A stretch of 64,000 nucleotides of DNA. It comes from Cystobasidiomycetes sp. EMM_F5. Taxonomy: Eukaryota. The stretch lies in assembly GCA_051047955.1 (NCBI GenBank), contig JBPGPT010000056.1:1-64000 (forward strand). Direction: 5' to 3'. Below the pieces are notes generated by a model. That model was not told the DNA's origin and did not search any database. It saw only the letters and a program-made list of their open reading frames with translations. The translations under genes were made by a program, and so were the position numbers. This document shows, in pieces, positions 6,310 through 50,752 of the stretch (positions are counted from its first letter, which is position 1; each line of letters starts with the position of its first letter).

Positions 6310-6678
6310 CGTCGAGGCAGAGTCCAGCCGAGTATCGCTGGCTGATATCAAGATTATTGAAGCTGTACGCGTTTGTTGGGCAGTTTGAAGGCTACAGAGT
6401 CCGTTCAAAGACTGGCTGAATGGTAATCTTGCGTGTATGTTGGGGAGCAGTATTTGGTGTATGTCTCATTCAGCATGCGACCCTTGCATTGTATTGCTCC
6501 AATTACTCCAGTTCCAACCGTGTTTCAATTCAAAAGTTACTCTCTCTCTAACCCCCGAAACTATGACTGCTGCACCCACGCTCGCACAGCGCACAGACTG
6601 AGTATATGGCAGGACACGGACACTCAACGACGACCACTCTCAAATAATACGCCTTTCAAGCAAGATTGTCCGACCAAT

Positions 6679-9600
6679 ATGACCGATTCAATAGCGCAGT
6701 CTGGTGGAAATGGAATGGCCAGCTCATCGTCGAATTTCAGTCCTCCTCCTCCTCTGATCTCACCGCCAGAATCCCAATGGCCAGCCTACTTTTTCCCTCC
6801 ACTCGCTCAGCAGCGCATGGTCTTTTGCGTCGAGCTGTTGAAGCAGCAGGACGTGCAGTCGGTGGGCGGAGCGGCTGAACGATTATTGACAGGACTGACT
6901 GTGCGCATACAATTCATTATACTCACTCATACTCCTCTCAAACCTGTCATATATACCCCGGACTCTTGGCTGACGGTGGCGATATCCATCCCGCATATGG
7001 CGACCGTCGCTCGCTTGATGTGAAATGTGATACAACCATGCAATACTCTCTCGCTATGGTGTGCGCGTCGAACTCTGCGCTGCTACACGGATCCCGCGGT
7101 GCACACGGTTGATCACGTTGGCGATGCCGAACCGATAATATAATCTTCGACACGTCTGTGCGGGATCCATCAAAACACGTCCACGCACTCCTTACACGCA
7201 TTAAACTACGTCATCACGGTCGGTACAGGTGTGCGAACTGGGATGCGGCGATGGATCAGTCCTTCGACCAATGGTGAATGGAGCATCCCACAGCGATTCG
7301 TTCCCAGAGCCCTACGTCGAGGAACCACGCCCTTCCCAGCCCCCTACTCCTGTTGATCTCCCTGAAGACGGCGACGAAGAACAGGAGGAGCGGAACGTTG
7401 CATCCACCTCCACCTCTACGAGTCGGCGGATCCGCACAGCAAGCGGATCGACAGAAGAAGACGATACGGCCATCCAATCCAAATCTACATCATCTTCACT
7501 GTCTTCGCTCGACAATGTATCATCAAATAAAGCACCAGACTGGGGCATAAATCGTGCGATATTGGATGCCTTTCAGAAATTACCGCCTTCAAGATCTGTC
7601 GACAAAGAGCTACATTTGAGGCGAATAGCAGGCTTGGATATCGTACCAGAACACTTGGAACATGCCATTCTCGCTACGGCGCCTTCGGAAGAAGAACAAG
7701 CGAGTTTCGAAGCTGCGGCTGCGGTCATTGCGGCTCGTAAAGCGAACAAAGGTCGACAGCAAGGTACGCCAGCTAATCATTCTTGATCTCCAATAGACTA
7801 AAGTATACGCTGCCGACCTATATAGACGAAACAGATGCAGATGATGTGAATGCCGAATATTCATGGGCTCCCCCAGATCGATGGGAAGATTTACGCGTCG
7901 AGATCTGGCAAGGCAGTCTGGACGTGTACAATGAGGCCTTTGACAACTTCGAAGCCATCATCATGACTGAGGTCATTGAGCACCTCTATGAAAAGCAGCT
8001 CGACAAATTTCCAGAAATCCTCTTTGGTTCGTACAGGCCCAGAATTGTCGCAATCACCACGCCAAACTATGATTTTAACAAGTATTTCACGAGAAGGTCG
8101 ACAGAAATGGCAATGGCTCACAAAAAGAAGAAGAAGAACGCGGATATGGATGATGATGCGCAACTTGACGAGACGCAAACTGGGTTCTTGGATCCGACAG
8201 GGCGGACGGACCGTGTATTTCGTGATGCAGATCACAAGTTCGAGTGGACGCAACAGGAATTTGCAGCGTGGTGCGAGAAGATTACGTCGACTTATGAATA
8301 TTCAGTTACGATCACGGGCGTCGGCTCGCTTAAGAACTATTACGGTAAAGGAGGATTCCGGGGCTTGTCAGAGGACACTACACCGGCCAAATCCGCGACA
8401 GCCGAACAGCCCGAATGGGTCACGACGGCACTAGCTGAATGTCCCGGCGGCGACGCTTCAAAATTCTTCGCAACGCAATGTGCGGTCTTTAAACGGCGGT
8501 ACACGTATGAACAAGAAAGAAACCCTCGTTCGCCCGTACAATCTCCTCTCGCCTTTTACGGTAAATTACCAACGTCATCAAGTAATCCAGCATTAGCAAA
8601 TACCGCACCCGCTAGTCCCGGCTCTATAACGCGACCCGCTTCGCGAGGTCGGTCTGCTATTGCTATACCCGGGGCGACTGCACTGTCCGGCAGAGGCGCT
8701 TCCGGTTCAGGCTCCGGGAGTCGGGGACGGCTGTCAGGTACTACGTTGTTTGGTCAGGCCCCGGGTATGGCTGCGGGCTCATCACCTGCTTCTCCCAGTT
8801 CCATCATGACTCTGTCGTCTGTTGGAAATGGAAACTCAGCAAATAAATCAACTTCGGCACAGCCAACACAGCACAAACTCCTCAAAACGCACGTGTATCG
8901 CGCGTCGCCCTACGCCGGTAATCCACAAAATTTGCCATACATCAATAAAGTGGTGGAGAAGCTCATGCGCGAAAAGATGAGAATGAAGACTGTGTCATTG
9001 CGGGAACTGTGGGGTCGGAACGAGGTATCGAGAGCTTGCGGTGGCTACATCAACAAGATTATACAAGCTGCAATTGAAGACGGCAAAGAGAATCGTTTCG
9101 ACATGGAGTTTAAGCTGAGCCTTCTTGCTTCTGGCGCGTCACTTGAAGATGCCACCTTCCTAGTATTGAAAGATTTTGTTGAGGAAGAAGTCAAATGGAC
9201 GGGCTTGGTTGATGACGAGGACGATGAAGATGAAGGGAATGGGTATACGCAGTATGAAGGCGAACTATCAGATGACGACAGCGACGACCTCGAAAGCCTG
9301 AGGAAGGAAGCAAAGAAGCCGAAGAGAGTCTGGCCCAAGAAATTGAAAGCTCGGCCAGTTGCGGCGAAGGCAGCAGATACGATTGCTGTTACGCAACCGT
9401 CGTCTGCAGATATCGAAGCAGGAGCCTCAAGCATGACTATACGCGCTTCTGGGAAGCAGCAGTGGTCGCTCCCCACCGCTGGACTGGTGCCTGACGCCGA
9501 TGCTGTGGCTGGATGGGATGTCATCCCGAAAGACGCGAGTGGTAAACCTACGCACAAACTGGAAAATGGGCTGCTCTGGCCTATGGCAAATGACGCAAGC

Positions 9601-9735
9601 GAAAAAGCGGACTGGGGCCCTGCTCCGGCAGAAACGGCAGAGGACGCAGCGTTGTGGGGTTCGACTAAAATCAGCAGCTTAATGACGGAGGAAGAGTGGC
9701 AGGCTGAGAATCCAAGTACTAGTGGATGGGACTAA
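6679..9735 (+). CDS. HEN1: HEN1-family small RNA 3'-terminal 2'-O-methyltransferase with long C-terminal extension
   Basis: FFPPLAQQR (FxPP motif), ELGCGDG (SAM binding), GLDI, TEVIEHL, TTPNYDFN, FRDADHKFEW. Introns at 6862-7228 and about 7764-7825. Confidence 0.9.
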
Positions 9736-27900: not shown

Positions 27901-28385
27901 CGAGCACTGACTGCAATTCGCGTAGCTGCTTCTTCACTGAATCGATTTCGCTGTCAATCTGTGAGACAACAGCGGCGCAGCGAGTCAGTGCAGTGTGTAT
28001 TGATAGAGTGACGGTATGTAATGCATACATTAGCTATCTCTTTGGGGATTACTGTTGGAATTGACTGTGATGCAATGGAAGACGGCCCTGCGACACCGTT
28101 GGAGCCATTCGCTGGAGGATGGCCATTCGACCGGAGCTGATTATAGTACTCGTCGATAGCATCGTCCATGTTCTCTACTTCTTCTTCCTCATCATCGTCT
28201 GGAATTTCGTATATTTCTTTGCTTTGATTTCGCGTTACATCGACCCGGCTCGACCGGTATGCGCTCTTCTGCTGCTTCCTGTCCGTCATGATGGCTGCAT
28301 GTTCATCTTCAGCCTCAGCATCAGCGCCGCAATATCCAGCATGGCTGTGCTCGTCGTCTGAACCTGGCGCGTATCTGAATGGCAT
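24932..28385 (-). CDS. RecQ-family ATP-dependent DNA helicase (RECQL1-like)
   Basis: [72 protein letters not shown] Zn motif CRK...CGHCDNC. Confidence 0.93.
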
Positions 28386-31217: not shown

Positions 31218-32996
31218 TCAGAATCCGAAAATCAGATTCGTAACCGTGCTAATGACGCCTCCGCCAGTCGAGTTGGCTTGCTTCTTGTCTGCCTGCCCAT
31301 TCGTCTGCGCAGACGGCTGCTGAAAGACCTTTGGGTCAATCTTGCCTAGATCCGCTAGTCTACTGCTCGTTGCTGAGCGCGCTACTTGCATGTGAGCAGA
31401 CGACGGTTTCGGTTTCAAAAAGGCCGCAGAAGCAGGTAAAACTCTTGCTGGTGTGCCAAGCGACGTGGAAGATTGATTATGCTGAGAGTCAGATGCCTGT
31501 TGATCTGCTGAAGAAGCTGCAGCAGCAGAAGCGGCATCGGCGTACTTGACGCCAATCATAAAGCCCGAAATCACATCTCCATGCCGCGCTATAGCCCGTT
31601 GTGCAGATACTGTAGATTCATAGCCAAGCGTAAACCAATTTGCGCCTGTGTCTCCCTTCTGTGAGCCTTCCGGTTTCGAGGTTGACGACGAATTGTACGA
31701 AACTGGGCCAAGGGAGGTGAATTGTCGGACGACGTCTTGTCGAGAGTCGGGAGGGAACCCAAAGACAACGATCTTGAATCCTCCCGATAGCGATGATAAG
31801 GGAGTCGACACGCCGTTCGATGTAGAGGCTGATGCGTTGCCGTTCTCGGTCGGTCGGCGGCCTGACCCAGGTAATGCGAGGGCGCCTACAGAGGGAGGAG
31901 ATGAGATGCCGTTCGTAAGCGCTCCAATAGGTTGCGGTGAAGTAGAGAATTGCGTAGACATGTTGCTCTCGTCATACTCGTCAAGCGAAGTTGTGGGAGG
32001 AGCGTCCTCGTCCATACCGGACGTGTCGCCGTCACCTTGAGAGGAAGAAGACGCAGCTGTGCTTTGACGCATGCGGGACGATGATACCAAACCCGCTCGT
32101 GTCGCATACAATGACTGTCGAGGCGAACGTGATGGGCTGCAGTAGCGAGCGGATCAGCAAGTAACCAATTGGATACCTGTCAACCACCGACATACCTATC
32201 GCGCCCTCCTCCCGTGCCCCCGCTTGCAGTACTCCCACGCAATCCTCTCGCTCCACTATTGCTCCCAGCCAAATCTCGAGGTGTCTGTTCCGGAGATTTG
32301 CTTTCGTATGATCTAGCCGGAGACTGAAGAAAGCTGTCAGCTTCAGGTTACAACCACTTACCACCCTTCTCTACACACCTGGGCTGCTCCACTGAAGAAG
32401 CTGCTCATAAATCTCGGCGGAGCCCGTTCTTGACCCGGCGACGCTGTGTTTGCAGCGCTTGTTGAATTCTGGTGATGAGCAATAAATGACCCCATATTGG
32501 GCTGATAGAAGCCCTGTTGGGGCTGCTGTTGCTGGTTAGACATGTGTTGCTGCTGTGGCTGGTTTGAAAACGACGCGTTTCCGGAGTATTGGCCGTACGT
32601 TTGCTGCTGCGGCGGCTGCTGGGACATGCTATTGCCTTGCAGTGATTGAAATGAGGTTCCCTGTTGATACTGCTGGTTGTTCTGCTGTTGCTGCGGTTGT
32701 TGCTGTTGTTGCTGTTGCTGCTGCATGCCGTAGGAAGCTGTCGAGTACATGTTTTGCGTCGGTGGAGCATACGACGATGAGGAAAAGAATGGCTGCGAGG
32801 ATGATGAAGCCGCGGATGGAGTGCCATAGCCTGAAGTGGTGTTGTTGTTGGGGTTGTTGCTCGAAAAGCCGTAGCCTGGCTGCTGCTGCTGCTGGCCATT
32901 CATTGGTGTCCCGAATCCATTACTATTGCTGCTGCCCTGCCCTCCTCCTCCCCACATACTGCTGCTGTTGCTCTGCTGCTGCATCGCCCAAGACAT
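31218..32996 (-). CDS. Nucleoporin Nup53/Nup35/Nup40-like (RRM)
   Basis: Q/S/N-rich N-terminus, APPTTSL, RRM with IVVFGFPP, GANWFTLGY, AQRAIARHG...MIGVKY, and C-terminal amphipathic VTNLIFGF. Confidence 0.85.
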
Positions 32997-34695: not shown

Positions 34696-36651
34696 TTATG
34701 CCTTGACGCCATAGAACCGCCTGTTCATCTCGTCAACCTTTTCGAGGTAGTATGTGCCCGCAAACAGCTTGTCGTTTGATCCGGCAGGCGTATAGTTCTT
34801 GATGTTGTGCTTCTCCTCTCGCAACTGCACAATTGCAAATGCAGCAAACGATGTCAGTCAATGTTATAGTAAAATCAATCGGTGTGCAGGCCTAGCTCAC
34901 TTTCAAAGCATCAACAAACTCCTGGCATGGTCTCACTTCCATAGACGCAAGTCTCTCCTTCAGGTTCAATGTTGTCCTGATCGAGCTGGTGTCACCTCGG
35001 ACGTAGATGGTGAAGAACGACGCAGCGAGGCCGCTGCCGAAAGAGAACAGAGCGATACGCTTGCCTTGAAGCTCCTCTGGTGCCACCGAGTCGACTATGC
35101 TGGCAAGACCGCCGTATACAGATGCCGTGTACATGTTGCCTAGCCGGCGCATGCACTGCGTTGCGGGCCAAACGGCGCTCTTGTATTTGTCTGCTGAAGC
35201 AGCGATGAACAACTTTTCGCAGTCCTTGTTGAGCACAGACTTGTTGCGTGGCATTGTTTTGAACTCTTCAGGAATGTGAGAGAATCGCTCGGCAGTAGGA
35301 TCCGCAAGGTAGTCAATGTAGAAGAGTCGAGCAGTCGCTTTTTGTACAAGCTTGCCGTATGGCCCGTGCCAGCCAATGTAGTCGAAGGAATCGACAGTGA
35401 TGGTGCTGTCGGTGGAATGATTGCCGTTCACTCCGTTGGCTTTGGTGGCAGACTTGCCGGCCTTTGCGCGCTTGGCTGCCTTTGCCTTGTAATTCTCGTA
35501 AGACTGCTCGAGGCCGCCAATGTAAGAGTGCAGAGTGAGTGGCCCATCGACTGAGGGGTACTCAGATGCCAAGTCTGGCTTGAAGAAATCCCACCAGTTC
35601 CCAACACAGTTTCCGTGAGTGGCTGCATGATATTATTAACAAGATAAGCTTTGGAATAACACACTGAGCGTAAAGGAACGGACGTTCGATAACCATGGGT
35701 GCATCAGGACCGATGAGAATAGCTGCGGCGCCGGCGCCTCCGACAGGTCGAGCAGATCCTTCAGCGTATACGGCAATATCGCCGCAGACCATGAGGGCGT
35801 AACGGCCATCCCAAGATTCGGACTGCACCCAGTTGACGCAGTTGAAGAGCGCAGCTGTGCCACCGTAGCAGGCATTCTTGCTGTCAATGCCTTCGATGTC
35901 GTAGTTGCCGCTTGGCGCAAACAGATCCATGAGTACAGTCTTCACAGACTTGGACTTGTCAATGATGGACTCTGTGCCGACATCGAGCCGACCGATAGTG
36001 CGTGGGTCAATGTTGTACTTCTTTAGCAGATTGGAGGTGACTGTTGACAGGTGCGCTTAAATTCGCATCGATGAAAATGACTGCTTCTCTACACACCGGT
36101 GAGGGCATATGAATTGATGTCTTCATTGTCACTGCTGAAGGCCATGTATCTGGAATGCGGAGAATCAGCGGAATCAGCGGAACCATCGTCAGCATGTAGA
36201 CATGCTGAGTCAGTCATAAAACTCACTCCTGGCCTAGCCCCTTCGTATACTGCATGTGCGAATGTAGCCAACATTGTTAGCCGCTGGCGAAGCAAGACAG
36301 CGGATAGCTTCCCACCTTTCCGGCTGCGACTCCATCAAACTTCTCGAGCTCCGTCTCGTCGATGCACGTCGGTGGGAAATAAATCTCAATAGCGTCTGTT
36401 TAGGGATGTTGTTGCAGATTTGTAGGGTTGAGGCACGAGCGCAAGTCGGAGTTTGCGAGGAGATGGAATACCAGCGACGACAGAAGCGTGCACATTAGAC
36501 CATTAGCAATGCCAGTACAGCCTGCCATTTTGTATCAAAGCTCAGGCTCACGTATTCCGACATTCTCGGGTCTCTTTGAATCTGAGACTTGGAATGGAAA
36601 CGCAGCTCCCTCGAGGTGCAGGTTTGGTGCTGAGCCTGATGGTGCTGCCAT
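34696..36651 (-). CDS. ERG13: Hydroxymethylglutaryl-CoA synthase
   Basis: [42 protein letters not shown] (catalytic Cys), [23 protein letters not shown]. Confidence 0.97.
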
Positions 36652-36941
36652 GGGTTGAGTGGGTGCTATGCTGTGGTGCTGGTTAGATGAATCTCAAATT
36701 TGTTTGATATTGTGCAAAGTTGAACCAGATGGACGCGAAGAAACAAGGACGGACTCAACCAAAACCTCAATCGCAAAGACGGCACAAACAGACCGGAATG
36801 GTCTCATTCGAATAAGCTATGGACAGCTCTGCTCAGTCTATCGTTCAACGCGGGATTAGGCGGTCGAAAAGCTCGTTTTTTTGCAAACCTCGTACGATAA
36901 CGATGCAACGCGCGAATGACGCGACAACAAATGCGCGACTC

Positions 36942-39900
36942 TTAGCCGTCAGTCAGCGGAGTACCAGGAGCACTGTCTTCGCCGTGGAAAAAGTCGGCAA
37001 GGTCCTGTATTATATGTCAACGTCAGCATTCAGCACATCAGACACAAATGAGGATGCCACATACGTCCTCTTCTTCCTTTTGCAATTTGCCGCTCTCCAA
37101 GGCATCCTCTGCACCAGCTGCACCCGTCTCAATGACCTGAACAGCTTTGGCACCTTCCTCTGCCTTCCAGCCTTTGCCTCTCAACATGGCCTCATCCTGT
37201 ATTGCCAGGAAAATTAGCATGTATAGTGATATCATCCATCGCAAAAGACATACACTGCGATCCAAGAGCATCTGCAGAGTCTCGTCCGAGATAGCCTCAT
37301 CTGCCGTACTTATGACACGCGCTTCTTTGCCCTGCTCAACCTCTTTCATCTCTTCTGCAAACATGCGTGCAGCCAGGCCAGCGCCCTTGTCTTCTTTACC
37401 ACCACCGCTTCCAGACTTTGCAGCGTTGCCAGTAAAGATGTCTTGGAGATCTTCGAGCGATGTGGTGTATTTGCCTGATCCAATAACCAGCGCTTCTAGC
37501 TTCCGTTTCGCACCAGCCCGCTCAAGCATCTTCGCTTCGACTGTGTTGGCGGTAACGAGTCTGAACACGAGCACTGGATTCGTCTGTCCCAACCGATGAA
37601 CGCGGTCCATGGCTTGCAGATCCATTTGCGGATTCCAGTCAGAATCGTACAATATGACTGTGTCTGCGCCAGTGAGATTGATGCCGACGCCTCCGGAACG
37701 CGTCGAGAGGAGGAAGAGATGGCACGAGTCTGGTCCCTTCTCTTCATTGAACTCCTTGAGCTGCGAGCGCCGCTCATCCTGCTTGGTCAACCCATCAATT
37801 CGCATGGTCCGCCAGCCTTTAAATTCCTCTGCCCAGTCTTCGATGATGTCCAGCTGGCTCGTAAACTGGCTGAATACTAAGCATTTGTGCCCAGTCCGCA
37901 CAAGCTCGGTTAACAATCGATCCAAGAGCATCATCTTGCCGCTTGACGTGACTATGCGCTTATCGACGATGTACTCGCCGGTTTTGGGATCCATTGGCCA
38001 TTCAAACAGCCATGGCTGGGGGCATACATCTCAGACGTTTGCATGATCTATGGCATCCTCAGGAGACGTACGTGATTGCACACTTTCCGACACTGCATCA
38101 CCATATTCTGCAGCTTCATGTGGTTGACGTTGTTAACTGTATGCAGTTTGGCCGAATGAATTAGACCCGATTTTCGTACTCGAGTAGAATCCTCTTACAT
38201 CTGCTGGAGTTGGTGATCTGCTTGTCGTAGATATGGCCATATCTTAGCTTTTCGAAATCTTCCGCTTTTTCACGCTCTTCTCCGGAATACAGACTCAACA
38301 AGAATTCCTGCTCCGACTGCTCTACATAGCTAGGGCGTGACCGTTTCGCTTGCGGAGCATCTTCGTCCTCGTTAGCTTCTGTTTCTTCCGTATCGGCGTT
38401 GGCTTTTCGTTTTTTGCCTTTGCCTTTCTGCTGCATGGCAGCTTTCGCTTTCTTATTATTGCTCTTCTTCGGCACGTCCTCGTCATCCGAAGAAAAGGGT
38501 GGCTGTTGCTCGTCAGGTAATAGATCTTTCCTCTTGAGCAAGAAATCCCTGATTTGCCGCTTGATGACTGCATCGTACAGCTTCTTTTGTTCCATTGTCA
38601 AGGCGGCCGATAAAAGGTACTCCTTCTTTGGCGGAAGATTCTTTTCTACTTCCCGCTTCACTCGCCGTAATAGGAATGGCTTGAGGATGGAATGAAGTTT
38701 GGTAATGATCTGTACAGACGCGCTATCTTCGCCATTTACATCGATATCGAACCAAGATTGGAATGAATCTAGATCGTCGAATATCTGCAATTCGCATGTG
38801 AGCTTGTATGCTTGCATACCGGCAACCATGAAGACTCACCTCCGGCATAAGGAAGTTTAACAGACTCCACAGCTCTTCCAAGTTATTTTGTAGTGGTGTA
38901 CCAGTGAGCAGAAGTCTATTTGCTGATTTATACGACATGAGCTCCCGAATAAGTTTGCAGTTCATATTCTTTATGCGATGCGATTCGTCGATAATGAGGT
39001 ATTTCCAATCATACTTTGACAGGTATTTTCTATCGTGCATGACGAGCTCGCTGGGATACTTGTCAGCCAATGTTTTGTAAGACGATCGCACAATAACTTA
39101 CTACGATGTCACCACCACCGGGAACGTTTCGACAGTATTGAAATAGTACGCTCCGCGCTTCGATCTCGTCACCTCGGCTCGTTTGCCTTTATGCATATCC
39201 ACGGGAAGTCGCATCCGCTCTTCGCGCATGTCTTCGCGTTCTTTAGGTGTACCGTGATATAGCAATGCAGGAAAATCTGGAGTGAATCGCTCGAATTCGT
39301 TTACCCACTGCACATCACCGGGCAAAATTCAGGCTGACAGTTGCGAAGTACGGGAGTCGACTTACGTTGGCCAGTGTTGACAGTGGACAGACCACCAGGA
39401 ATGGTCCCCAAACTCCCTTCTCGCGAAGGTACGAGAGGAAAGCGATAGTCTGTAATGTCTTGCCAAGACCCTATATTGAAGAGATCGTCAGTCAGTGTGA
39501 AGGGTTTTGCGATATGCAGCGTCTCAGCTTACCATTTCGTCAGCGAGAACTATCGGTAGCGCGGTAGGTCAGTATTATCGAGCACAGAGTGACCGAAGCA
39601 TACTCACTGCCGTTCAAGCCGTTCTCGTACAGGCTTATAAGCCATTCCATGCCAGCCAGCTGGTATGACTTCATTGTCGCGCCTTTGACCAGTGATGGTT
39701 GACGGGACTTCGCTTCCTCGTTGCCGTCATCATCGTCGTCGTCATCATCATCTTCTCCTTCCTCGTCCTCCTCTTTCGCTTGTCGCGGCTGATCCCCTTC
39801 GTCTTCCGAATCCTGTACATCACCAGCCTTGCCTTTTTTGCCGTTGCTTTTGCTTGGCTTTTCCTCCTCTTCATCATCTGTGCTGCTCAGATCCATAATC

Positions 39901-40625
39901 TCCTCTTTGGCCTTTCCATTCTGGCTTCGAGTAGTCCCATTCGGCTTTGTAGACCCATTTGCGACTTTATTCTGAGCATTTCGGGCCGCTGTCCTTCCGT
40001 TCAGTCCCAAAGCCGACGCTACCTGCTTTGCGGGCGCTTCCTTTGCATTCAAACGCGTTCTCGGATTGTTTCCCTGTCTTGTGACTCTCGCGCCACTATG
40101 CACCTGTATCGAAGCATCGGCATCGGCATCGCCGTCATTGTCACTTGTAAAATCGCGAGCCTTGACGTCGTTTCCGTCTCCATTGTATGAATCAGACTGT
40201 TTGGATGCAGCCGATACGCGCCCTCTGGCCGGCTTCTTCTGCTGTCCAGTCTTATTTACAGCTCCTGCTGCGTTGCCGGATCGCGTATCCCTCCCGGCCT
40301 GATTGTCGCGCTCTGCCTGCTTCTTTGCCTTGTTGTTCTTTCTCGTATCAGCCTTTGCGTCTCTTCTCTGTCGCTCGAGCGTGTCTCTTGCGAGTTTGTC
40401 TGGATGTCGTGTTTGAAATCAGTACACTGGCCATCCATTTATAACAGGGTAATCTGATCCACCAGCAATAATTCGCGAGTATATGCTAGACTGCTGGAGC
40501 AGGAAGCTGAGCTTCTCGGGCAGCACTGGCTCGTCGTCGCCGTCTTTGTCGATATTGTTCGCGTCTGCTGGAGTCTGCGACCGCGTTACATCGACTGAAG
40601 CTGCAGCTGAGCCTGGCGACGACAT
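36942..40625 (-). CDS. SNF2-family chromatin remodeler, LSH/HELLS/DDM1 (Irc5-like) subfamily
   Basis: [90 protein letters not shown]. Confidence 0.92.
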
Positions 40626-40801
40626 GGCCGGTCAACGTTATGGCAGGATGAGCGTTTAATATCCAGTCCAAGCTGTCGGTCAAATCAAGGAAAGCCATAA
40701 GCTCTTTACGCGGTCCTCTAACGCTGATCGAGGCAATATTTCAAAGACGACGACGACGATATCGCTGCTTTGCTCTTGACCAAGTCTGCCATACCGCTCA
40801 A

Positions 40802-42373
40802 ATGCCAGTGCTCGCTGCCGCACTGCCGTCCAGGAATGGCTGGTCGACGGCTGCAATAGCTGGCCTCATTTCACTTCCGTGTGTTTTCGAATGACGATGA
40901 TATTCAACAACAATGTCCTGACTTGGCTCGCAGTATCGCATACGCCGCAGTCACAGAGTGCTACAGGTACTATATCGTACGACAGCGGCACGCAGCGTAC
41001 ACGCACTTTCTAAAGACGAGAACGGGCAACGTGTTTGACGATTTGAGGGAAGCCGTCGTTGCGAGGTTTGCGACCTTACGAGGACCACTGACGGGTGAGT
41101 GAATTCTCACATCTTCTCTGAATAGTTCATTGAATGACGCTTTCGCAGGCCGATACCTCAACGTGACTTTCGAATGGCACGAACAGAGCATATACGAGTT
41201 TCTGCTCCACCAACTCGTCTACAAACCGCTAACGGGACGGATATGGTGGTACGGGGGTCTGAGCAAAGACCCGGCTGTGCGAGAAGCCAGTCTACCCCAA
41301 GAAACGGTTGACATTCAGCAGCTCAAGCGCAGGAGCTGGAGGAGTAGTAAACGTAGACTATCACCCTCTGCACAGAATACAACTCCATCCGAGTCAGACG
41401 AATGGGAGGAATTGGCAGAATCGCCTTCTTCAGACGACGCCACCGATACGCTCTCCTTTACATGGCTGGGTCAATCCACCTGCATCGTCCAAATAGACGG
41501 CATCACTATCCTCACAGACCCCGTATTCACCGATAAACCGATAGCACACTGGCTAGCGCCGTCTCGTTTACGCGAAACGCCAATATCGCTCCAAGAGCTC
41601 ATGGAAGCAGACATTATCGACATTTGTATCGTCAGTCACGATCATTTCGACCACGCGAGCGAGGAAGCTGTACAGCAGCTGGGCAACAAGGCACTGTGGG
41701 TCTGTCCGCAGGATCTATCACATTTCTTTGTGTCGAATGGCGTGCACCCTTCGCGCGTAATCGAGATGACTTGGTGGGACGAGAGGACTGTCAATGTCCC
41801 CGGCGCAGATGTCATTCTCCAGCTTGCGTGCACGCCTGCACAGCACTGGTCGGGTAGAGGATTGCGAGACGTCAATCAGAGTTTGTGGGCGGGATTCATC
41901 GTAAAGAGCGTGCGGACGGGAAAAAGTTTCTTCCACTGCGGTGATACTGGCTACTCGAAGGGTAGGTGGTTCTCAGCACAGAGATGTAGAGGGTGTCGTC
42001 TGACTGTGTTGAGTTTAGACCTGTATGAAGCGGTTGGGAGGATATACGCTCCCATTACTGTTGCTGCCATTCCGGTAGGCTCCTACTCGCCTGTATGGTA
42101 CATGAAGAACTTTCACACGACGCCCAAAGGTGCTGTCCGGATACATCGTCAGCTGGGCATACAGCAGTCTGTCGCTGTGCATTGGGTCAGTGTGGGGAAC
42201 AATGTCAAGCAAGCAAGTCAGCTAACGACTACGATGATTAGGGCACATGGATGATGTCTGACGAGCGATGGGATGATCCGCCCAAGGAGTTAGCCAAGCA
42301 ATTGCAAGAGCAGGGCGTCAATGAGGAGTCGTTTGTCGTTCTTCCTGCTGGGCGGACAATCTCTGTCGAGTAA
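40802..42373 (+). CDS. NAPE-PLD/Fmp30-like metallo-beta-lactamase phospholipase D
   Basis: TWLGQST, ILTDPVF, SHDHFDH, TPAQHWSGR, FFHCGDTGY, IPVGSYSP, HWGTW. Confidence 0.9.
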
Positions 42374-42522
42374 AGCAAAGCAAAGCATAGCATAGCATAG
42401 CTTCGTCGCCGTCGTCGTGTTGTTGTAGCCGTACGTGCTTGCCATCCTACTTAGTTTTTCGTCGTCTCTCTCGTCCCCGCCCATCTTTTCACCAACGCCA
42501 GTCACCAAACCTGCCCCGAGCC

Positions 42523-43671
42523 ATGTCGTCGATGGCACTGCGCAATGTTGCTCGAGCTGCTGCTGCTGTCAGTGCTGCACCGCGGAGGGCCATAACGAGA
42601 CCTGGGATGGTCGCTGCGATGAACGGGTGAGCTGGGAGGAATAGCCATCAAAGCATTGGAACGTGGATGTATCTGAACACCTGCTGACTGCCATTTGTGA
42701 TTACTGCACACCATACTCCCCGCTCATACTCCTCGCATCGCATTACTCGCCGACGAACTGGAACCGGGGAATGCCTTTTAATCCGCAAACTATGCCATCA
42801 GACTCCGATATGCGTCCAGCACTCCAGCCAAGCAGGACCCAAAGAGCAGAGCCGCTGCCCTCATCGACGCCCTCCCCGGCAACTCTGTAGTCTCAAAGAC
42901 GGGCTGGATCACCCTCGGAACGGCACTCACTGGCCTCGGACTGAGCAAGGAGCTGTTGGTCGTCAACGAGGAGGTGCATCGTCGTGGATGGCATCGCAGC
43001 TGTCGGTGACGCTGACGTGTCTCGCTGCCCTCCTTCTCCGCTTCCCAGGTCGTCGTCGCTGGCTCCTTCTTCATCCTGATCGCCTACCTGAGGTGAGCTC
43101 CGACAAAGCTGCGACGAGCAACGAGCAACGAGCTCAGACATGAGTCTGACGATCTTTTACGCATACCTCTCACTCTAATAGCACCCTCATCCGCACCCCG
43201 TACTCGGAATGGGCAGACGGCCAGATTGCAAAGTTCAAGGACATTCTAAACAATTCGCGCACATCGCACACTCAAGCCGTACAGACGCGCATTGACAGCA
43301 TGGCCGAGCTCAAGAATGTCGAAGAGATTACAAACCAGCTGTTTGCTCTGTCAAAGGAGACTGCCCAGCTCGAGCACGAGACGTTTACCCTAAAGCAAAA
43401 GGCAGCCCTCGCTTCCGAAGTAAAGGCGACCCTCGACTCGTGGGTCCGCTTCGAGGCTCAGCAGCGAGAGTCGGAGCAGGCAGAACTCGTAAAGAGCATA
43501 CAGGAGAAGGTACTCGCTTCCCTCAAGGATCCCAAATCGCAAAAGGATATCCTCGCTCAGGCGGTCAGCGATCTTGAGAGTGGGTTGCGTTGTTCAATGG
43601 TGTGGTTGCATACAGCTAAAGGCCTGCCATCCTGCCAACCACCAGACCTCGTCAAGTCTGGCAAGCTGTAA
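42523..43671 (+). CDS. ATP4: Mitochondrial ATP synthase F0 subunit b (subunit 4)
   Basis: Presequence, IDALPGNS..SKTG, SKELLVVNEE, LFALSKETAQLE, VKATLDSWVRFE. Confidence 0.95.
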
Positions 43672-49569: not shown

Positions 49570-50752
49570 ATGCCCGCCAAAGGCTGGAAGCTCAACAAGG
49601 AGACTGGCAAGTGGGAGCGGGATCCAAACTACGTTCCCGAGACTGCGACTGCTGCTTCGACGAGCGGAAAACGGGGAGGTGACGGGTCGGGCGGTCAAGG
49701 GTCTGGCAGCGGTGGGGACAACAGCATGGGAATGGACGAGCGAGGACTTTTGGCAGGGCTGGATCAGTTTGAGCTCCCGAAAGGGTCAGGTAGGTGCATT
49801 TGAATGGTGTGTTGACGGCCAGTCCATGATATGCTGACGATGGATTGATTTGACGCGTAAAGTGGTCAGGATAGCAAAGAACGCGGTAGGCTGGCGGAGG
49901 ATAGCTGCTTCAATTTGTTCAAGTAGCGGCTGATGCTTCTTCCGACGGCTCAGGTGCCGCCAGGTGTTACTCTGCGTACGCTCATCAGCAATGCTCAAAA
50001 CATCAATTCTATATCTAGCTGACGAGTTGCAATACTATGGCCCTAACCAGGCAAGGAAGTCCAAGTAGCAGTCGTCAAAGGCAGTACAGTCTTTGTGAGC
50101 TATCTCGCAGCCATGTAAGCCGTCCCGAACGTACAAGCACAACGTCAATCTCACTGTGCTAATGAAAACCCTCGCATACCTTGATTTTGAAATCACTGCA
50201 ACAGAGCCGCTGAGGTAGCAGCCGCAAGAAACCAAAAGACGATAATGCCAGAACACATCTACGCCGCTCTACAGGAATTAGACTGGGAAGAAGACGAGGT
50301 CAAGCAGATGCAAAAGATGCTCAAAGGGCAACTGAAGGGTAGGCTGCGATTATCGACTGCCTGCATTATGGCGTAAAGTAATGTGACTGTCTCGATGACT
50401 TTCTACCCTGACAGAATTCAAGAAGCGTCGTGTGGCCAAGAAGACTGGTGTCCGACCAGGAGCACCTGGAGACGCGACAGCAGGTACTAGCAACGGCAAC
50501 GCGGTACACATCGACTCGCCAGACGAAGACGCACCAGGCGACGAAGCAGCCGAAGACAGTCCTTTCGAGGCAGAAGATGAAGTGGACGCGACGGAGGAAG
50601 AGGGGTTCGAGTATGAAGACGAGACTGAAGGTGACAACGTTAGTGGGACGTCACTCGGTCATTTCTCCGAACAGCAAGGGCTCCCAGTGGAAGTGGGGGC
50701 AGGCGGGATGGATATCGATGCTGGTCAAAACGGCGTGGTTGTAGCACATTAG
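49570..50752 (+). CDS. DPB4: Histone-fold protein, DNA polymerase epsilon subunit 4/CHRAC17-like
   Basis: Spliced FELPKGSVVRIAKNAVP...KEVQVAVVKGSTVFVSYL...KTIMPEHIYAALQELD; acidic tail. Confidence 0.85.

Follow-up and report, generated by a model that had tools for sequence, protein, structure and literature searches.

Three long first introns with distant candidate branch sites and AG-free intervals in a contig of Cystobasidiomycetes sp. EMM_F5

Introduction

In human introns, both the use of the first AG and AG-exclusion zones are established, and the cases with a distant branch point are tied to long pyrimidine tracts and to regulated or mutually exclusive exons. Such introns, with their AG dinucleotide exclusion zones, were reportedly described by Gooding et al. 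in 2006, and a scanning and competition model of 3′ splice-site choice is said to have been presented by Smith et al. in 1993. How the acceptor is found after the first catalytic step is still debated, with linear scanning, diffusion and RNA folding all under consideration. This report concerns three long first introns in a stretch of 64 kilobases (kb) of contig JBPGPT010000056.1 (positions 1 to 64,000; “the window”). They reside in a HEN1-like gene (small-RNA methyltransferase), in ERG13 (HMG-CoA synthase) and in ATP4 (mitochondrial ATP synthase subunit b). As read from the sequence, these introns probably combine distant branch points, AG-exclusion zones and first-AG acceptor choice.

Among fungi, distant-branch introns with branch-to-acceptor distances of up to 166, 471 and 185 nucleotides (nt) are reported for Saccharomyces, Candida glabrata and Kluyveromyces lactis, respectively, in PMC3239191. 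The same paper states that in the distant-branch introns of Saccharomycotina (COF1, UBC13; Gahura et al. 2011) RNA structure shortens the distance and a stem-loop hides silent AGs, and that in budding yeast COF1 deletion variants without the stem splice to the first AG past the branch. For Schizosaccharomyces pombe, PMC9508853 gives ~40 of ~5250 introns with a branch-to-acceptor distance of at least 30 nt and describes such spacings as poorly spliced. Its branchpoint-distant 3′ splice sites depend on Sde2, Cactin/Cay1 and Tls1, according to the same paper. In Cryptococcus, the branch-to-acceptor distance sensitises introns to the loss of accessory factors, according to bioRxiv 10.1101/2021.03.19.436190. 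A search of the open-access literature returned no description of the intron layout reported below in basidiomycetes.

Three Long First Introns and Their Junctions

An earlier note on this DNA had delimited three introns of more than 150 nt and called each the first of its gene; all three were found in place and in that rank. The first coding intron of the HEN1-like gene spans 6862..7228 on the plus strand (367 nt, donor GTGGGC, acceptor ACAG). The identity of the gene comes from its downstream exon, which matches human HENMT1, bacterial Hen1 and Arabidopsis HEN1 in the PDB (E 2e-17 to 2e-12); a Pfam search with the exons gave no family. The junction is ungapped in two homologues, with residue 84 of P0001 mapping to 6864 and 7229 and residue 97 of P0002 doing likewise. 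It falls within a conserved block, DVQS joined to VCELGCGDG, of which DVQS-VCELGCG aligns to DIKS-VCEMGCG and DIKS-VCEFGCG.

Intron 1 of ERG13 lies at 36396..36551 on the minus strand (156 nt, donor GTGAGC, acceptor ACAG) and is supported by Pfam matches of the exons and by alignment of the N-terminus. The spliced N-terminus runs ungapped against four homologues (P0007-P0010), with no residue gained or lost, and the seven-exon model aligns end to end with P0010. On this homologue evidence, the first introns of HEN1-like and ERG13 are confirmed as real, with their ends fixed.

Intron 1 of ATP4 occupies 42627..42801 on the plus strand (175 nt, donor GTGAGC, acceptor TCAG), as placed by Pfam, the PDB and the spliced model. 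A later exon matches the Pfam family Mt_ATP-synt_B. Exon 2 starts LRYASSTPAKQDPK, and SSTPAKQ-DPK is aligned to the N-terminus of the solved yeast subunit in the PDB, so that homologues partly confirm the predicted junction. A second in-frame AG, possibly an alternative 3′ splice site, is present at 42818-42819 (+), 18 nt past the acceptor; its use would shorten the presequence region by six residues, LRYASS. The AG-free tract is the same either way.

The three were viewed against a curated set of 46 coding introns, of which 17 have homology-checked junctions and 29 are predicted only. The median length is 62 nt; 43 measure 52-90 nt, and no intron above 90 nt other than these three was found among the 46. 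Nested or tandem short introns of the stwintron type and a missed micro-exon were also considered as sources of the extra length. The intervals contain no internal AG, which makes nested introns impossible in all three, and the homologues carry no extra junction residues.

AG-Free Intervals

The earlier note had described 124-334 nt without AG ahead of each long-intron acceptor, and the runs measure 334, 124 and 146 nt in HEN1-like, ERG13 and ATP4, exactly bearing this out. Each tract was permuted with its own base composition in 20000 trials. The HEN1-like zone (6893..7226, plus strand, 334 nt) was AG-free in 0 of 20000 shuffles, the ERG13 zone (36398..36521, minus strand, 124 nt) in 41 of 20000 and the ATP4 zone (42654..42799, plus strand, 146 nt) in 3 of 20000. 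At the AG frequency of the window (0.064 on the plus strand, 0.068 on the minus strand), the probability of such a run is 2e-10 for 334 nt, 1.6e-4 for 124 nt and 6e-5 for 146 nt. The HEN1-like run is the longest AG-free stretch of the window on either strand.

The absence is specific to AG. In the HEN1-like tract it is the sole one of the 16 dinucleotides to be missing (0 observed against 16.7 expected); GA occurs 17 times and the others 9-33 times. The base composition is C 101, T 83, A 79 and G 71 of 334 nt, which is 55% pyrimidine (184/334), and no extended pyrimidine tract fills this interval. The AG-free share of intron length amounts to 0.79-0.91 in the three long introns. Among the 43 short introns, the AG-free runs have a median of 25 nt and a maximum of 68 nt.

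The position of the change is equally marked. Taking the three introns together, the 129 nt that precede the first CTRAY hold 9 AGs and the 557 nt that follow it hold none (Fisher p 2.3e-7). The switch from AG-frequent to AG-free sequence in the long introns thus coincides with the branch motif.

Window-wide, AG-free runs of at least 100 nt number 12 on the plus strand and 5 on the minus strand. With 17 such runs, the 124- and 146-nt tracts are notable only for ending exactly at verified acceptors. The same count is what chance or mis-annotation has in its favour as an explanation of the three intervals, and given the shuffle and Fisher tests and the homology-fixed junctions that explanation has a negligible probability. 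As judged by eye, many of the runs of at least 100 nt lie antisense to coding or low-complexity sequence. Four on the plus strand (39693-39824, 40013-40112, 32875-32990 and 28160-28310; 100-151 nt) are antisense to coding or low-complexity parts of minus-strand genes and look like composition effects, not introns.

A control set was drawn from other fungi by automated spliced alignment of 80 metagenomic ERG13 loci, yielding 82 junctions in 45 loci, 76 of them unambiguous and well scoring. At the 8 of these 76 junctions where the intron is at least 90 nt long, the AG-free runs are 10-83 nt, or 9-77% of the length. The median AG-free fraction is 0.32 in the 90-149 nt bin and 0.49 for the single longer intron. 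AG-free runs of 70-83 nt occur in these loci, so this organism is not alone in having moderately distant branch sites. The A-I-E-x-Y-x-P motif was found in 62 of the 80 loci, and in nearly all of these the upstream residues are contiguous by eye; the position of ERG13 intron 1 is therefore not common to them.

Candidate Branch Sites

The earlier note had placed a CTRAY some 36-60 nt from each donor, and strict motifs do put the branch A at 37-61 nt. The candidate in the HEN1-like intron is a CTGAC at 6895..6899 (plus strand). Its branch A, at 6898, is separated by 37 nt from the donor and by 330 nt from the 3′ end, and the final AG ahead of the motif (6891-6892) is 3 nt upstream of it. A second CTGAC at 6970..6974 (plus strand; branch A 6973; distances of 112 nt to the donor and 255 nt to the 3′ end) is an alternative or additional candidate. 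Two CTAAT candidates are found in the ERG13 intron at 36494..36506 (minus strand): one has its branch A at 36503 (donor distance 49 nt, 3′-end distance 107 nt), the other at 36495 (57 and 99 nt). The ATP4 candidate is a CTGAC at 42684..42688 (plus strand), whose branch A (42687) is at distances of 61 nt to the donor and 114 nt to the 3′ end.

In each long intron, 3-31 nt separate the last AG from the start of the strict CTRAY, and the next AG downstream of that candidate branch motif is the acceptor. The donor-to-motif distance of 37-61 nt falls within the range of the short introns (24-68 nt), so that the extra length of the long introns lies entirely downstream of the motif.

The Short-Intron Baseline

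In 29 of the 43 short introns there is a strict CTRAY for which the used acceptor is the first AG at least 9 nt downstream. In these 29, the median donor-to-branch distance is 44 nt (24-68) and the median distance between branch A and 3′ end is 20 nt (10-42), which is the usual fungal layout. The remaining 14 of the 43 have no strict CTRAY compatible with the acceptor. Short-intron length tracks the donor-to-branch distance (Spearman r 0.78) more closely than it does the branch-to-acceptor distance (r 0.47), and in this the short introns behave as in other fungi. The suggestion that the donor-to-branch distance is fixed in this lineage does not hold, because it grows with length among the short introns. 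The data match an upper limit near 70 nt, not a constant.

The earlier note had also named a DPB4 intron as a milder version of the long layout. That comparison stands, with amended measurements: the predicted junctions are 50115..50204 (plus strand, 90 nt) instead of an end at about 50203, and the AG-free run is 65 nt instead of about 40 nt. A CTAAT puts the branch A at a donor distance of 48 nt and leaves 42 nt to the 3′ end, a value at the top of the range for short introns. This is the fourth of five introns (73, 68, 75, 90 and 76 nt in the model made here) of the DPB4-like histone-fold gene, not the first. Taken alone its AG-free run is weakly significant, with 706 of 20000 shuffles AG-free.

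Two further genes bear on acceptor choice. Short introns with homology-checked junctions follow the first-AG rule. For the mitochondrial-carrier gene, the gene model had picked an AG beyond the true acceptor, which is the first one past a CTGAC; this acceptor was set by what is presumably the C-terminal pattern of the family, not by a homologue search. In the GH15-gene intron at 45722-45657 (minus strand), an AG with its G 8 nt after the branch A of a CTGAC is skipped in favour of an AG at 18 nt, a choice that homologues establish. The shortest distance allowed between branch and acceptor may thus be ~9 nt or more.

Gene Models and Sample

The gene models were built with a dynamic-programming script written for the purpose, which did not use branch-site position; the last run scored the presence of CTRAY anywhere in the intron. 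Models were corrected by homologues for ERG13, the SNF2 (HELLS-type) helicase and the GH15-type gene, and by reading-frame inspection for the mitochondrial carrier and DPB4. The survey covers coding introns only, and the homology-supported models account for roughly half of the genes in the window.

The script had also proposed “long introns” of 105-439 nt, together with merged genes. Those followed up, in the GH15 gene, a FUSC gene, DPB4 and the mitochondrial carrier, were rejected by inspection and homologues, proving to be two short introns with a small exon between them or wrong acceptors. The remaining proposals were dropped unmodelled and none serves as evidence. All three genuine long first introns were missed or misplaced by the simple gene model. 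In the HEN1-like gene, the first 159 nt of the intron (6862-7020, plus strand) are open in the frame of exon 1, and this open reading frame (6427-7020) running into the intron misled the model to a different intron (7020-7293).

Two of the curated genes contain micro-exons. The one in ERG13 (36249-36227, minus strand, 23 nt) is backed by the alignment to P0010. Two in the DPB4-like gene, at 49863-49885 (plus strand, 23 nt) and 49954-49975 (plus strand, 22 nt), have a histone-fold sequence pattern as their basis.

The window is gene-dense fungal nuclear DNA with a G+C content of about 0.52. Its largest open reading frame with HMG-CoA synthase homology is 66% identical to a protein of Cystobasidium minutum, the closest named relative, 63-69% identical to further proteins and 54% identical to that of Mixia. 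The sole named relative among the matches of the HEN1-like gene is again C. minutum, which belongs to the Pucciniomycotina, class Cystobasidiomycetes. Both genes thus point to a basidiomycete near Cystobasidiomycetes, and the collections searched yielded no closely related sequenced organism. The C. minutum homologues of the HEN1-like protein (6715-9735) and ERG13 (36651-34696) are both placed on a contig of 817,545 nt, which may reflect conserved linkage.

Proposed Mechanism and Alternative Explanations

The reading favoured here, of distant branch points with AG-exclusion zones, treats the three as ordinary spliceosomal first introns in which the branch would lie at the usual ~40-60 nt from the donor and the acceptor another 100-330 nt downstream. 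Intron definition would be the work of U1 at the donor together with the branch-site machinery at the CTRAY, across the span usual for the 52-90-nt introns. After lariat formation, the second step would use the first AG downstream of the branch. An intervening AG would act as a wrong acceptor, and since any new AG in the interval would become one, selection may have purged AG from the whole of it, leaving an AG-exclusion zone. Acceptor choice would then be a first-AG search, and intron growth upstream of the branch would presumably be disfavoured.

A number of points weigh against this reading. The long-intron sample is three. That the donor-proximal CTRAY motifs are the branch sites actually used is a judgement from motif and position, and its status as such counts against the proposal. 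Of the 46 baseline introns, 29 are predictions made here, and the script picked wrong acceptors or merged short introns in several genes until homology correction. A relaxed motif is the sole compatible candidate in 10 of the 40 tabulated short introns. A spacing of 330 nt is extreme for a fungus given the poor splicing in S. pombe at distances of at least 30 nt (PMC9508853). Lastly, relaxed motifs are found nearer the acceptor in two of the long introns, namely TTAAT 20 nt (ATP4) and CTTAC 34 nt (HEN1-like) from the 3′ end.

A broader version of the proposal extends to the lineage. Its spliceosome would need the donor and branch within ~70 nt of each other and would find the first AG over hundreds of unstructured nucleotides, so that introns could gain length only past the branch and with AG strictly excluded; a shared C/T-rich element, CTCCTCKCA, ~35-40 nt past the branch may help. 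Such a lineage-wide constraint is consistent with all 46 modelled introns and rests on the three long ones, and it is offered as a tentative idea, with confidence well short of even.

The typical branch-to-acceptor distances of those relaxed motifs lend something to a different account, in which the main branch would be a weak motif near the acceptor. The donor-proximal CTRAY would be used occasionally or cryptically, and AG would have been purged since even rare use mis-splices. The 14 of 43 short introns without an acceptor-compatible strict CTRAY indicate that weak branch sites are in use here. However, a relaxed motif (16 of 1024 pentamers) is expected by chance in a 33-nt window ~40% of the time, which gives its occurrence little weight; two introns out of three is about the rate that chance would give, and ERG13 intron 1 has no relaxed branch-like motif near its acceptor. 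For AG to be purged over 300 nt, the upstream branch would also have to be in use often enough to have an effect. This account is judged unlikely.

Structure-assisted distant branch points, as in budding yeast, would have the interval fold so as to bring the acceptor to the branch. For the HEN1-like intron, the ensemble-averaged branch-to-acceptor path is 4.3, compared with 15.4 +/- 7.0 in shuffles, of which 4% of 50 were as short. Shuffled sequences also bring the ends within 15-25 steps, so generic folding may shorten the distance anyway. Against this, the folding energy of the whole introns is no better than that of shuffles (z -0.07, +0.69 and +1.17). The path is not shortened in ATP4 (12.7 against 20.6; 16% as short) or ERG13 (24.2 against 24.9; 46% as short), and selection for structure is at best hinted at, in the HEN1-like intron only. 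There are also no AGs to mask, masking being the second role of the yeast structures (PMC3239191). Folding of this kind is an improbable explanation of the three introns.

The shared element bears on one more alternative, that the AG-free tracts hold some other functional element that happens to have no AG, for example an embedded RNA, a first-intron regulatory element or a mobile “introner”. CTCCTCKCA has exactly three matches in the window on both strands, compared with 1.69 expected, one in the sense strand of each long intron and 33-42 nt past the branch A. The HEN1-like match CTCCTCTCA (6932..6940, plus strand) starts 34 nt downstream of the branch A. The ATP4 match CTCCTCGCA (42729..42737, plus strand) is 42 nt downstream, and the same word in ERG13 (36454..36462, minus strand) lies 41 nt past one branch A candidate and 33 nt past the other. 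A wider similarity around the matches reads TCATACTCCTC(T/G)CA. The pattern was derived from the same introns, and the fair test is a 10-mer with at most 1 mismatch common to three shuffled introns; this was matched in 7 of 300 shuffle sets (~0.02). As an extra element of the long introns, CTCCTCKCA is suggestive, not established. A related C/T/A-rich repeat, CTCATACTCATATTCATACTCATCTCG, is present at 3310-3281 (minus strand) in the divergent region of a nucleotide-sugar transporter gene (plus strand) and a CoA-binding gene (minus strand), and the CATACTC-type word may also be a feature of promoters or 5′ untranslated regions.

An element of 10-15 nt cannot account for 334 AG-free nt. No Rfam match was obtained in the window, nor in the HEN1-like intron at E up to 1, and the window has no tRNAs. 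Beyond words of 11-16 nt, there is no similarity between the introns or between introns and window. Alignment of four introns with MAFFT gave nothing interpretable, and no similar introner-like copies were found within the 64 kb. The chance that the tracts are an element of this sort is slight.

Comparison with Known Systems

The distant branch points and AG-exclusion zones proposed for HEN1-like, ERG13 and ATP4 represent a known kind of phenomenon, in a lineage and on a scale not described in the open-access literature searched. The unusual point is the scale of the branch-to-acceptor distance for a short-intron fungus. If the broader, lineage-wide proposal is true, this would be a fungal system that naturally separates the definition of the branch site from a long-range acceptor search. 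A short-intron fungus that splices over 100-330 AG-free nucleotides with no apparent structure would offer a natural setting in which to study first-AG selection at long range and to test the factors presumed to support it: Slu7, Prp18, Sde2, Cactin, Tls1 and U2AF. For annotation, gene finders tuned to acceptor-proximal branch sites and to introns of 50-90 nt will miss or misplace such first introns.

The introns resemble the human AG-exclusion introns in having a long AG-free interval up to the acceptor, a branch consensus at its upstream edge and an acceptor that is the first AG. They differ from that class in that the interval is 55% pyrimidine (HEN1-like), in being first introns of housekeeping-type genes and in that the other introns are 52-90 nt long.

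With S. pombe the organism shares an intron-rich, short-intron genome in which the branch-to-acceptor spacing is a recognised variable of intron geometry. Distances termed distant there are ~20-40 nt, whereas here they are 99-330 nt.

A contrast with well-studied yeasts, where extra length was said usually to lie upstream of the branch point, had been drawn in the earlier note. It survives in part: distant-branch introns do exist in those yeasts, but through RNA structure and not AG exclusion (PMC3239191). Like the structured introns of Saccharomycotina, those of the window are fungal and have a branch-to-acceptor distance far above the norm. Unlike them, they contain no AG at all in place of silent AGs within a stable stem-loop, and their folding energy is at the level of shuffled sequence. 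AG exclusion would thus be the opposite solution to the structure-hidden AGs of Saccharomycotina.

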